Part shown: positions 7,905-19,998 of the stretch, piece by piece
Position numbering within the stretch: position 1 is the stretch's first letter
Layout: the number at the start of each line of letters is the position of its first letter
Assembly: GCA_021498095.1 (NCBI GenBank)
Contig: JAIZWK010000001.1
Location: 2,820,001 to 2,852,000, forward strand
Direction of reading: 5' to 3'
Length of the DNA: 32,000 nucleotides
Source: Candidatus Harpocratesius repetitus
GTDB taxonomy: Archaea > Asgardarchaeota > Lokiarchaeia > Sigyniarchaeales > Promethearchaeaceae
Program-made: the position numbers and the translations under genes
Notes under the pieces: generated by a model
Databases searched by the model: none
What the model was told of the DNA's origin: nothing
What the model saw: the letters and a program-made list of their open reading frames with translations, nothing else

Positions 7905-8780
7905 TTATTCATCACTTAAGAGTGTATTTAATTCGGCTTGAGAAAATACAGGCCCATCGATGCAGACAAATTTATTTCCGATATTACAACGCCCGCACTT
8001 TCCAATTCCACATTTCATCCTCCGTTCAAGAGAAAGATAGATTTGAGGATCTGTAAAACCCAATTCTCGAAGAACGGGAAGAGTGTATTTAATCATGATG
8101 GGTGGTCCACACACAAATGCAAGACTATTTTGTGGAGAAGGTGCGACTTCTTTAGTAATTGTTGGCACAAAACCCACTTTTTTATCCCAGTTTGGATGAG
8201 CTCGATCAATTGTTAAATAAACTCCAATATCATTCATTTTTTCCCATTCAGATAACTCAGATTTATAGCAGAATTCTCCAGGATTTCGACATCCGTAAAT
8301 AATTGTGATATTTTGAAATTTCTTGCGGTTATCTGAATTTAAAATAAACACAATCAATGAGCGCAAGGTAGTAAAAGCAAAACCCCCTCCGATAATGACA
8401 ATATTTTTTCCTTCTGCTTCTTGCATTGGCCAGCCATTACCAAATGGTCCTCTTATTCCAATTTTTTTCCCTATTTTAGCAGAATGAAGTTGACTGGTAA
8501 CTTTTCCTGTTTTTTTCACGGTAAATAATAGATAATCTTCTTCAGTTGGAGAACTAGCAATTCCAATGGGAGATTCGCCCACACCAAACACATTTAATTC
8601 AGCAAATTGACCTGGAACAAAAGACTTATAAAATCTTTCTTTAGCATCTGGATCATCGAAGATTAACTTAAATGTTTTTAAATCATTTTCATCATTTTCT
8701 GAATTAATATTTTCAATAGTAACAATGTCTGGAATATAAGGATTTTGAATTAGCTGATGATTTTGTTGTTCTTTTAGCAG
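7905..8780 (-). CDS. flxA: FAD/NAD(P)-binding [2Fe-2S] subunit, FlxA/AsrB/HydG family; probable CTG start
   Basis: GPFGNGW, IGGGFAFTTLRSL, CGPPIM and ERRMKCGIGKCGRC...C..GPVF. The frame stays open upstream of the track start (8591) through NPYIP and PGQF up to 8786, with no ATG/GTG/TTG in that stretch. Confidence 0.85.
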   Translation of the reverse strand: MLKEQQNHQLIQNPYIPDIVTIENINSENDENDLKTFKLIFDDPDAKERFYKSFVPGQFAELNVFGVGESPIGIASSPTEEDYLLFTVKKTGKVTSQLHSAKIGKKIGIRGPFGNGWPMQEAEGKNIVIIGGGFAFTTLRSLIVFILNSDNRKKFQNITIIYGCRNPGEFCYKSELSEWEKMNDIGVYLTIDRAHPNWDKKVGFVPTITKEVAPSPQNSLAFVCGPPIMIKYTLPVLRELGFTDPQIYLSLERRMKCGIGKCGRCNIGNKFVCIDGPVFSQAELNTLLSDE

Positions 8781-8782
8781 TT

Positions 8783-9931
8783 TTAGTCACCTTCTTGAAC
8801 ATTTTTTGCGATTTCTTGAACTTTAACTAAAGTTTTTCTAATATCTTGATTTACGGGGCAAACTTGAATACATCTACCGCAGCCCACACAACCTAAAATA
8901 TCATAATTTTTAAGATAATAATTGAATTTATGATAAATTCTTTGCCGAGTTCTTTTTTCTCCAGCTGCTCGGGGATTATGCCCTGATGCTTCCAAGGTAA
9001 ACAAAGGAATTTGACATGTATCCCAAATTCTGACTCTTTTTCCTATAGATTTCCCAACTATATCAGTTTTTTCAATTTTTTCTTGCACATCAAAGCAATG
9101 ACATGTTGGACAAATGTAGCTACATGCGCCACATTTTAAACATGTACGGGCGATTTTTTGCCATATTTCATGGTTGTAAAGACCTTCAAGTTCCATTTCA
9201 ATGTTATCTAAATTAAGGGAAACTCGAATTTGCTCACGGGCGTGAGAAGCATTTTGATCTTTTAATTTTAAATCTTCTAATGAAGCATTTGAGTAAGATT
9301 CAACGTAGGGCTTAAATTTCTCACCATTAGGAGAAATAATCTGAAAAAGATACTTTTCGGGTAATTCATATAAAACTGCATCGAAACCTTCTACCGAATA
9401 TGGTCCACCATTTACAGATGTACAAAAACATGTTGTCATTGGCTCATTGCAAGCGATTCCAATAAGTAACGTATGATTTCGCTTATTAAAATAATAAGGA
9501 TCGCTGTACTTCCCAGAAGAGAAGAATGTATCTAATATTTTAAAGCTACGTGCATCGCAATTTCTTATCCCAAAAATGATTTGATTATTAATTTCTGCTC
9601 CTTTTTCCGCAATCTTAATGTTGTTACCTTCTATTTCATAGGAAAAAAGCACTTCACTTTGTGGGAATAGAAATTTTTTTGGTGCTATACGAATATTTTG
9701 ATATTCTGGAAATTCGTATTCTTCATTTAATACATCAACATAATCAAAAATTAACTCATTGTTTTTGGTTTTTTCTTTACTTTTATCTTTATTTTTATGA
9801 GTCGGAAGTATGAGTTTATATTCTTTATTTAATCTTTCCAAGAATATTTTTAGTTCTTCTTTTGGAATAACTTTGAAGCAGTCTTGACTATTTTGATTCT
9901 GATTTCCTGTCCCTTCCATGTATCTTTTCAC
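8783..9931 (-). CDS. flxB: 4Fe-4S dicluster protein, FlxB/AsrA family
   Basis: PKKFLFP, GIRNCD, CxxxxxTCFC, CLKCGACSYICPTCHCF and GCVGCGRCIQVCP. Confidence 0.8.
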   Translation of the reverse strand: MKRYMEGTGNQNQNSQDCFKVIPKEELKIFLERLNKEYKLILPTHKNKDKSKEKTKNNELIFDYVDVLNEEYEFPEYQNIRIAPKKFLFPQSEVLFSYEIEGNNIKIAEKGAEINNQIIFGIRNCDARSFKILDTFFSSGKYSDPYYFNKRNHTLLIGIACNEPMTTCFCTSVNGGPYSVEGFDAVLYELPEKYLFQIISPNGEKFKPYVESYSNASLEDLKLKDQNASHAREQIRVSLNLDNIEMELEGLYNHEIWQKIARTCLKCGACSYICPTCHCFDVQEKIEKTDIVGKSIGKRVRIWDTCQIPLFTLEASGHNPRAAGEKRTRQRIYHKFNYYLKNYDILGCVGCGRCIQVCPVNQDIRKTLVKVQEIAKNVQEGD

Positions 9932-9937
9932 ACCTAC

Positions 9938-18470: not shown

Positions 18471-18493
18471 TTTTACTCACTTCTGTTCCGATC

Positions 18494-19459
18494 TTATTGA
18501 TTTTCAATTAAATTTAGTTCTTCCAAAATTTTCTTTGGTTTAATACCATGAAATTTTAAACTAATTTCCTTATCACTAAATCCTAACGCGAGAGCAACTA
18601 ATTCTGTCAAATACAATACTGGAATTTTAAAGTCAGTTCCATATATTTTATTTACTGCCTTTTGTTGATAATCAAATTGTAAGAAACAAGAAGGACAAAC
18701 AACTGTAATTACATGGACTCCTGCCTTTTTCATTTCTAATAGCTTTTGATAAAGCAATTCATAACTGAGATCTTTATCAGTTTTTAATAAAGGATTTCCA
18801 CAACATTGCAGTTTTCTATCATAATCTACACTTTCTGCACCTAAAGTATTAATTATTTCATCAACTGTGGTTGGTTCAAAAGGATCATCCCATTGAATAA
18901 CATCAGATGGACTTAAGAAATGACAGCCATAATGCACTGCAACTTTTAACCCTTTTAATGGATGTGTAATTTTAGATTTGATTAATTCAAGATTTTCATA
19001 TAAAACTTGAGCAGCATGCTTTACATCTACTCTTCCTTCTAATTTTCTATCGATCTTAGCCAAATTTGAGTTTACTTCTTCTTTTTTCTCAGGTTCTTTA
19101 GCAAGAATATGATCGACCATTTTTAATGTCTCAACACACCCTGAACATAGACTTATAATATCATTTTTTTTGTTATCTACTAAAGTCAAATTTCTGGCTC
19201 CTAATGTTAACCAAGTGGTCTGATCAACAGCAGATATACCAGTAGGATCTGGACAGCATGATGCATTTTCGATATTTGTCATAGGTATTTTTAGTTTTTG
19301 AAATACTTTTTTTGCAGAACCCTCAATAAATGGAAGACGAGCAGGAATTACACAACCTAAAAATAACTTGTGTTCGTTCACATTTGAATCGTTTTCACTA
19401 ATATTTGAATTTATTTGCATATCAACTTCTTTTTCAATTTTCTCACTTGATTTTAACAT
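18494..19459 (-). CDS. hdrB: Heterodisulfide reductase subunit B
   Basis: Two CCG domains: FLGC...CCPDP...CSGC and HYGCH...CCG...CPSC. Confidence 0.93.
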   Translation of the reverse strand: MLKSSEKIEKEVDMQINSNISENDSNVNEHKLFLGCVIPARLPFIEGSAKKVFQKLKIPMTNIENASCCPDPTGISAVDQTTWLTLGARNLTLVDNKKNDIISLCSGCVETLKMVDHILAKEPEKKEEVNSNLAKIDRKLEGRVDVKHAAQVLYENLELIKSKITHPLKGLKVAVHYGCHFLSPSDVIQWDDPFEPTTVDEIINTLGAESVDYDRKLQCCGNPLLKTDKDLSYELLYQKLLEMKKAGVHVITVVCPSCFLQFDYQQKAVNKIYGTDFKIPVLYLTELVALALGFSDKEISLKFHGIKPKKILEELNLIENQ

Positions 19460-19998
19460 TATTTATCACCCTTCTCATTCTCTTCTGGCTTGTTTGAACT
19501 TTTATCTTCAAATCTTATTAATTTTTTAAATCCAATATTGGTTAAAAGAGTCTGAATTTCGCTTATATCTGCAGTTTTATATTCTTCAAGTCCTAATTTC
19601 TTTCTACGTTTTAGAATTGCATCAGAAAAAGGCAAAGCAACCCCAGTTTGGAAAATAGTTTTTGCTTGAGAATTATATGCTTCAGGTATTTTTCCCTCTT
19701 TAACAATGGTGTTTTTGATTACATCAAATATTTCAACTAATTCTACTTTCTGAGGACAACTTTCTACGCATTTTTGACATGTTAAACAATACCAAACATT
19801 AGGTTGTTGCATATCAATTAGCTGTTCTCTTAATCCTAATAAGGCTGCTTCAATTATTTTTCGAGGATTAAATTTGCCATCAGTAATTCGAGCTACGGGG
19901 CAAACGCCACTGCAAGTTGCACATTGATAACAATAATTTAATGAAACATTAAATCTGAGTAATTTATGTCTAAGATTATAATCTATGGCCAGTGTCAT
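19459..19998 (-). CDS. hdrC: Heterodisulfide reductase subunit C
   Basis: CYQCATCSGVCP and CLTCQKCVESCP; 1-bp stop/start overlap with hdrB. Confidence 0.92.
   Translation of the reverse strand: MTLAIDYNLRHKLLRFNVSLNYCYQCATCSGVCPVARITDGKFNPRKIIEAALLGLREQLIDMQQPNVWYCLTCQKCVESCPQKVELVEIFDVIKNTIVKEGKIPEAYNSQAKTIFQTGVALPFSDAILKRRKKLGLEEYKTADISEIQTLLTNIGFKKLIRFEDKSSNKPEENEKGDK

Follow-up and report, generated by a model that had tools for sequence, protein, structure and literature searches.

In the Desulfovibrionaceae, Flx-Hdr has been proposed to oxidise NADH while reducing ferredoxin and a disulfide in a reversible reaction, and its operon is reported to be required genetically for NADH oxidation (PMC12125255, PMC6687939). 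A closer counterpart of the locus described here is known from an Asgard archaeon, the strain MK-D1 ('Candidatus Prometheoarchaeum syntrophicum'), in which Supplementary Table 4 of Imachi et al. 2020 (PMC7015854) gives DSAG12_03717-03726 as FloxA, FloxB, FloxC, FloxD, HdrA, MvhD, HdrA, HdrA, HdrB and HdrC. These ten loci are expressed at even levels, with 249-310 reads per kilobase per million mapped reads (RPKM), and the same paper states that Asgard archaea possess FlxABCD-HdrABC (PMC7015854). Here, we analyse a cluster of the same ten gene types in a 32,000-nucleotide stretch of DNA (hereafter, the window) from Candidatus Harpocratesius repetitus (contig JAIZWK010000001.1, positions 2,820,001 to 2,852,000), which lies 2.82 Mb into the single 4,361,485-bp contig (31.0% GC) of a closed genome.

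The minus strand of the window carries ten co-oriented genes that run from position 19998 to 7905 in the order hdrC-hdrB-hdrA'-hdrA''-mvhD-hdrA-flxD-flxC-flxB-flxA, all of which were assigned with Pfam and NCBIfam profiles. From hdrC to flxA, the intergenic gaps measure -1, 23, -4, -47, 11, 16, 1, 6 and 2 nt; the 47-nt overlap between hdrA'' and mvhD is only apparent because the start of mvhD is uncertain. The co-orientation, the gaps between -47 and 23 nt, the conserved synteny and the even RPKM of the MK-D1 orthologues would all fit a putative single transcription unit. As expected for FlxABCD-HdrABC, the cluster encodes a flavoprotein FlxA, the iron-sulfur proteins FlxB and FlxC, a FlxD next to HdrA, and HdrA, HdrB and HdrC, while the DsrC acceptor of that system was not found. 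MvhA and MvhG, which would accompany MvhD-HdrA in MvhADG-HdrABC, are missing. No hydrogenase, Fdh or AsrC-type gene occurs among the scanned window open reading frames (ORFs) of at least 100 aa, and no PF00374 or Oxidored_q6 gene was found within the window. From these subunit identities, together with the cofactor motifs, fold matches and synteny that we observed, we consider it probable (roughly 65%) that the ten genes form one operon and encode an Flx-Hdr complex of the hdrCBA-flxDCBA kind that is fed by NAD(P)H and has no hydrogenase.

An earlier note, written from the letters of this stretch, had described ten tightly packed co-oriented genes with no mvhA/mvhG or fdh gene, in the order of the Desulfovibrio Hdr-Flx system and in a probable Asgard archaeon. 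The profile searches recovered all ten genes where the note had placed them and the ORF scan agreed on the missing genes. The shared order is confirmed by PMC12125255, which writes the Nitratidesulfovibrio vulgaris/Bilophila operon as hdrCBA-flxDCBA; for the same reason, we dropped the idea that the genes here stand in the reverse of the Desulfovibrio order. The Asgard origin is supported by FlxC, whose closest homologues are from Promethearchaeota (66%), followed by Heimdall- and Lokiarchaeota metagenome-assembled genomes (MAGs; 47%).

The operon of MK-D1, an organism of a different genus in the same family, has its ten genes in the identical order. The genome studied here is not that of MK-D1, whose insertion-sequence (IS) inverted repeats were not found in it, and its flxA has lost the ATG start seen in relatives from the same family. 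The gene set is already known from MK-D1, and the idea of an asymmetric HdrA is already published; we found no discussion of HdrA asymmetry, of an MvhD tail or of an FdhB-like FlxC fold in the text and supplements of Imachi et al. 2020. Nitratidesulfovibrio vulgaris Hildenborough and Bilophila wadsworthia share with the window the subunit types, the hdrC-to-flxA order of transcription and the lack of a hydrogenase (Ramos et al. 2015, as cited in PMC12125255 and PMC6687939). In contrast to Desulfovibrio, which we compared by its published description since no Desulfovibrio locus was among the matches listed, the operon here contains an extra hdrA'-hdrA''-mvhD(tail) unit, and the proposed Desulfovibrio acceptor DsrC is absent from the genome. 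The 1002-aa double HdrA next to FlxD may be a further difference.

The first two genes encode the subunits on the disulfide side. HdrC (19459..19998, 179 aa; TIGR03290, 5e-34; Fer4_8) has two CxxCxxCxxxC motifs, the sites for two [4Fe-4S] clusters. HdrB (18494..19459, 321 aa; TIGR03288, 1e-88) consists of two CCG domains and has ten cysteines arranged as two C..CC..CxxC sets, both of which are complete at the disulfide site, and is predicted to be the catalytic, disulfide-reducing subunit. HdrA, HdrB, HdrC and MvhD of the window are clear homologues of the subunits in three solved complexes, MvhAGD-HdrABC (5ODC), Fdh-Hdr-Fmd (7BKB) and Elp-Hdr (8RVU). The donor module differs, being FlxAB of the NAD(P)H type here and hydrogenase, Fdh or Elp in the solved complexes; the system here also has no CoM-S-S-CoB and, unlike the solved complexes, has a heterodimer-type HdrA twice.

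The first HdrA unit is split into two proteins. HdrA' (17154..18470, 438 aa) aligns with residues 143-565 of 5ODC_A (E 6e-123), which cover the thioredoxin-reductase domain with the inserted ferredoxin domain; it retains Cys194 and Cys197 in an NDCSIC motif, while the N-terminal and C-terminal domains are both missing. HdrA'' (15448..17157, 569 aa) aligns with residues 2-237 and 320-652 of 5ODC_A, and consists of the N-terminal iron-sulfur (FeS) domain, the reductase domain lacking the inserted ferredoxin, and a ferredoxin domain at the C terminus. At the NDCSIC site it reads NNMDPEQ, so that Cys197 is lost. The second unit is a single 1002-aa HdrA (11611..14619; 42-46% identity to the split pair), in which an HdrA'-type half is followed by an HdrA''-type half in one chain, with residues 7-371, 446-596 and 868-995 corresponding to residues 146-511, 3-153 and 514-643 of 5ODC_A, respectively. 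The NDCS(I/M)C motif is kept in HdrA' and in the first fused half, both of which lack the N-terminal domain, and is absent from HdrA'' and from the second fused half, both of which have that domain. The GxGxxG dinucleotide motif is present in both types of half. The N-terminal cluster, the inserted ferredoxin domain and the ferredoxin domain at the C terminus are each present once per unit. With a single copy of every accessory domain, a unit would correspond to half of a homodimeric methanogen HdrA, an interpretation that follows PMC9012536. The expanded HdrA content suggested earlier for this locus therefore stands, as a split HdrA'/HdrA'' pair plus a fused double HdrA.

Tandem or fused HdrA proteins in which one half has lost the N-terminal domain and the other has lost Cys197 are known from anaerobic methanotrophic (ANME) archaea and Moorella, where the pattern has been interpreted as a heterodimeric HdrA (Chadwick et al. 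2022, PMC9012536), and the class was named type II HdrA in PMC12054007. As in ANME and Moorella, the N-terminal FeS domain and Cys197 lie on opposite halves here and, judged by this domain content, both HdrA units of the window are of the asymmetric heterodimer type, that is, type II HdrA. The order of the halves is reversed: the Cys197 half leads here, whereas ANME HdrA3/4 begin with the half that has the N-terminal domain. The partner of HdrA also differs, being Flx here and FdhAB-like or MetFV in the described cases.

Each HdrA unit is followed by an MvhD-like connector. FlxD (10980..11594, 204 aa; FlpD, 9e-55) is an MvhD-like [2Fe-2S] connector with five conserved cysteines, and adjoins the 1002-aa HdrA with a 16-nt gap. 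The first MvhD (14631..15494, start codon uncertain; FlpD, 2e-50; HTH_5, 6e-4) also keeps the five cysteines of MvhD, and its FlpD domain is followed by a C-terminal tail of ~130 aa that is conserved in Asgard archaea, Bathyarchaeia and one Anaerolineae MAG. In the predicted structure (predicted local distance difference test, pLDDT, 87), the core superposes on MvhD 5ODH_D (TMt 0.84), and the tail has a weak likeness to ArsR/SmtB winged helices (E ~0.02-0.1). We suspect from this model that the tail may have a winged-helix fold.

The Flx subunits provide the donor side. FlxC (9938..10993, with the start at 10993 or 10978; 346-351 aa; FrhB/FdhB-like) has two ferredoxin motifs plus further conserved cysteines. 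The top Foldseek matches of its model, which was built with 13 homologues (pLDDT 79), are FdhB chains of Hdr complexes (7BKB_E, 9e-16; 8RVU_E, 1e-14), followed by FrhB, and the FlxC family profile matches 9T1S_M, 7BKB_E and 8RVU_E at 1e-36 to 7e-31. FlxC is thus similar to FdhB, the chain by which MvhD is fed in 7BKB and 8RVU. The FdhB chains that it matches best are Hdr-bound and of the F420 type, and the genome encodes the F420 ligase CofE, which would fit F420H2 as an electron donor at FlxC, as in Elp-Hdr and Fdh-Hdr, either instead of or besides NAD(P)H at FlxA. We regard this donor as improbable, because the NAD-binding domain and the [2Fe-2S] site are complete in FlxA and because the FlxC family, at 32-40% identity, is part of this module in many bacteria, among them Desulfosporosinus, Pelotomaculum and Smithella. 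These bacteria are not known to be F420 users.

FlxB (8783..9931, 382 aa; Fer4_22, 2e-31; NF040833, 4e-52) is HydB/AsrA-like and matches the beta subunit of P. furiosus sulfhydrogenase I (SHI; 9NEZ_B, 1.5e-44), a complex that was solved with NADPH bound (9NEZ). FlxA (7905..8780, ~291 aa; PRK08345, 1e-54) has, in its extended 291-aa frame, the Pfam domains FAD_binding_6, NAD_binding_1 and DHODB_Fe-S_bind, with a C-terminal [2Fe-2S] site of the form C-x4-C-x2-C-x7-C (Cys257/262/265/273). The best NCBIfam families, HydB/ShyB/AsrA for FlxB and HydG/AsrB for FlxA, were matched far below their equivalog cut-offs. The likeness of FlxB and FlxA to the beta and gamma subunits of a sulfhydrogenase or of an AsrAB-type sulfite reductase is real, and the earlier note had named such a grouping, together with a linked hydrogenase or asrC partner, as one finding that would overturn its reading; the Hdr genes would then be unrelated neighbours. 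No such partner is linked. The hydrogenase alpha and delta subunits of the sulfhydrogenases (SHI/SHII) and the siroheme protein AsrC of AsrABC are missing from the scanned window ORFs, the genome's only [NiFe] large subunit lies ~1.33 Mb away in an mvhG-hdrC-hdrB-mvhA cluster, and FlxB and FlxA keep company with FlxC-FlxD-HdrA in the majority of the ~100 loci surveyed, so that this explanation is close to refuted.

The start of flxA deserves separate mention. The listed ORF, which begins at GTG 8591 and encodes 228 aa, is too short: the frame is open upstream as far as a TGA at 8789-8787 and encodes a family-typical N-terminus (NPYIP...PGQF), from which we conclude that the real flxA encodes ~291 aa. 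The 63 N-terminal codons are conserved despite the missing canonical start, as no ATG, GTG or TTG for a full-length flxA occurs in 8592-8794 of the minus strand. In relatives, flxA starts 8-9 codons ahead of NPYIP, with an ATG (MNHKHELDNPYIP) in the same family and a TTG in the genome G128. The candidates here are the CTG at 8780, which lies 2 nt past the flxB stop, or an ATT.

The cofactor motifs of HdrB, HdrC, FlxA, FlxD and both HdrA units are intact. By analogy with the solved Hdr complexes and with the Desulfovibrio genetics, the ten subunits would form a soluble complex in which FlxA, carrying FAD and the [2Fe-2S] cluster, oxidises NAD(P)H. Electrons would pass through the sulfhydrogenase-beta-like FlxB and the FdhB-like FlxC to FlxD and on to HdrA, whose flavin would split the electron pair. 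One branch would reach ferredoxin by way of the single inserted ferredoxin domain, and the other would run via HdrC to HdrB, whose two non-cubane clusters would reduce a disulfide. The fused HdrA would sit beside FlxD, and the split HdrA'/HdrA'' pair with the long-tailed MvhD beside HdrCB. The reverse direction, confurcation, may also be possible and would suit a syntrophic amino-acid fermenter.

We surveyed the synteny of ~100 loci, 20 of them from Asgard archaea and the non-Asgard ones being among the matches listed. At E <= 1e-20, FlxC was found in 143 of the 400 genomes of the phylum. Among these are 5 of the 13 genomes in its own family, 105 of the 135 in f3, another family of that order, and 23 of the 31 in one family that is more distant. 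The full ten-gene order was seen in 4 of the 20 Asgard loci and is shared by three further f3 loci. The layout is identical in the genome G142 of the same family (a single contig of 4.32 Mb), with 60-77% amino-acid identity. In the three f3 loci (L036:2719-5625, L048:14747-17704 and L051:1922-4879), hdrA' and hdrA'' are in one frame, with a single TAA and two codons between them. Because tblastn ran through the in-frame TAA, they had appeared as a fused first unit, and we rejected that assignment, as the genes are really split. The first pair is truly fused in G128 (L040), and the f3 pairs are one substitution from fusion. Outside the Asgard archaea, most of the layout is common to Bathyarchaeia and one Anaerolineae MAG. 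The Bathyarchaeia locus L054 contains nine genes, all but flxA, where the contig ends, and L053 contains eight, from hdrA' to flxA.

A smaller core, double HdrA-flxD-flxC-flxB-flxA, is found in Desulfosporosinus, Sporotomaculum, Pelotomaculum, Smithella, Syntrophales and many other bacteria, whose carriers include known syntrophs, and is often followed by an HdrC-like gene. In most of the examined loci that hold a double HdrA, this is the gene adjacent to flxD. In the double HdrA beside flxD of many bacterial loci (for example, L057, L061, L063, L072, L076 and L102), the match to the window protein breaks at about residue 160 and resumes ~1.4 kb further on, which implies an insertion of ~450 aa in the first half; this could be the GltD/NfnB-type insertion of type III HdrA.

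Trees were computed with LG+G4 and Shimodaira-Hasegawa-like approximate likelihood-ratio (SH-aLRT) support, and are unrooted as to the direction of transfer. For FlxC+FlxB+FlxA from 80 loci, the tree gathers the Lokiarchaeia-type sequences into a single clade (17 rows, support 97), within which the branching tracks the groups at family and genus level. Another group of Asgard sequences joins Hadarchaeota, and the Bathyarchaeia join Anaerolineae. In the tree of HdrA''-type halves, there are separate clades for the unit that precedes the long-tailed MvhD, with 16 rows and support 100, and for the unit that precedes FlxD, with 101 rows and support 98; both copies of the window group with those of family relatives. 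This points to vertical inheritance of the cluster within Lokiarchaeia and to exchange of the whole cluster among other lineages. Two of the checks that the earlier note had proposed, a phylogeny to separate vertical descent from bacterial transfer and a survey across Asgard genomes, are answered in this way: the Lokiarchaeia clade is congruent with taxonomy and does not look like a recent bacterial borrowing, and FlxC recurs in the phylum, with a layout conserved within Lokiarchaeia.

The separate clades of the two C-type halves (SH-aLRT 100 and 98) also bear on how many enzymes the operon encodes. A self-contained HdrCB-HdrA'A''-MvhD(tail) module with another donor and an HdrA(fused)-FlxDCBA module of the NAD(P)H:ferredoxin type could be two enzymes that share no more than a promoter. 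The many bacteria that have the double HdrA-flxDCBA with a small HdrC-like and sometimes an HdrB-like gene, and with no first unit, would fit this division, as would the number of HdrA/MvhD units, which differs among Asgard genomes, some of which hold extra ones (L033, L043 and L046). However, in those Lokiarchaeia and Bathyarchaeia loci that show both HdrCB and the region ahead of the HdrA units, HdrCB lies only upstream of the first unit, so the Flx-adjacent unit would have no HdrBC of its own, and gaps of 11-16 nt connect the two halves. We therefore consider two enzymes unlikely, though more plausible than any of the other alternatives raised here, and favour one Flx-Hdr complex.

The earlier note had spoken of an unknown disulfide substrate, which agrees with what the genome lacks: DsrC/TusE (PF04358), ComA and the alpha subunit of methyl-coenzyme M reductase (MCR) had no match in the closed genome. 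As both cysteine sets of HdrB are kept, a disulfide-type substrate is expected. The missing DsrC, coenzyme M (CoM) and MCR genes would also fit an acceptor at HdrB that is not a thiol or disulfide, such as a protein persulfide, a polysulfide or an organic compound (for example, fumarate) reached through a partner encoded elsewhere. We find this doubtful, given the complete disulfide-site cysteine sets, the lack of fumarate reductase, TusA/DsrE and lipoyl protein genes in the window, and the distance of both GcvH genes from all Hdr loci.

Downstream of flxA, we noticed an 81-aa ORF with six cysteines on the minus strand (7875-7630), 29 nt past flxA and with a GGAG-like motif ahead of it. As a conserved thiol partner it was rejected: it has no Pfam or NCBIfam match and is absent beside flxA in relatives. 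One weak paralogue is present in the genome at 397922-398077.

Several observations weigh against an NAD(P)H-fed, disulfide-reducing Flx-Hdr complex. DsrC, CoM synthesis and MCR are absent and no candidate thiol carrier is linked to the operon; both GcvH genes lie at a distance from all Hdr loci, and the Cys-rich ORF next to flxA lacks conservation. This reading also gives no reason for a second HdrA unit. The donor may be NADH or NADPH, and the lack of a canonical flxA start makes its expression level uncertain. Finally, we found no purified or assayed Flx-Hdr complex in the literature searched, so that for Desulfovibrio, too, bifurcation has been proposed and no more.

The genome contains five further Hdr loci. 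Its sole [NiFe] large subunit, at 1.4986 Mb and ~1.33 Mb from the operon, belongs to a cluster (G000:C1:1495707-1499831, equal to L133:4708-8832) that encodes a small-subunit-like/mvhG-like protein of 455 aa, HdrC, HdrB and the large subunit of 445 aa, and that contains neither HdrA nor MvhD. It differs from the hydrogenase set given for MK-D1, which comprises HdrC, HdrB, HdrA, MvhD and MvhG. This mvhG-hdrC-hdrB-[NiFe] cluster could share a thiol with Flx-Hdr.

The non-coding region upstream of hdrC (19999..20235, in the orientation of the minus-strand operon) is a candidate promoter and operator, as read from the sequence and with a repeat finder. Just upstream of hdrC, at window positions 20026-20118, it contains three phased copies of (A/G)TGATC(C)ATTTA with a spacing of 31 nt, and the middle copy is followed by a TATATATTT element. 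The exact 11-mer occurs 12 times genome-wide, two of these upstream of hdrC, and the orthologous upstream region of G142 also has several TGATCA-type motifs. The phased repeats may be an operator, conceivably one for the winged-helix tail of MvhD.

A more elaborate arrangement would bring these elements together. In it, the two HdrA units would act in series through the long-tailed MvhD, a thiol would be shared with the mvhG-hdrCB-mvhA hydrogenase so that disulfide cycling carries electrons from NAD(P)H to H2, and the MvhD tail would bind the TGATC(C)ATTTA repeats for redox autoregulation, making this a distinct two-tier form of Flx-Hdr in Lokiarchaeia, Bathyarchaeia and Anaerolineae. We offer it as speculation that is rather unlikely to be right as a whole. 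The genes that flank the operon in the window include those for a thiamine pyrophosphate (TPP) enzyme, an ADP-forming acyl-CoA synthetase-like protein, RidA, an inositol monophosphatase, CDC48 and KTI12.

To what is known from MK-D1, this analysis adds signs of vertical descent in Lokiarchaeia, the asymmetric HdrA units, the FdhB-like FlxC, the exclusion of acceptors and the flxA start. By excluding DsrC and CoM/CoB, the closed genome sharpens the question of which thiol serves the Asgard Hdr proteins. Syntrophic Asgard archaea that are poor in hydrogenases have few candidate routes for balancing NAD(P)H, ferredoxin and H2 or formate, and Flx-Hdr is one of them; this balance bears on metabolic models of the archaeal ancestor of eukaryotes.

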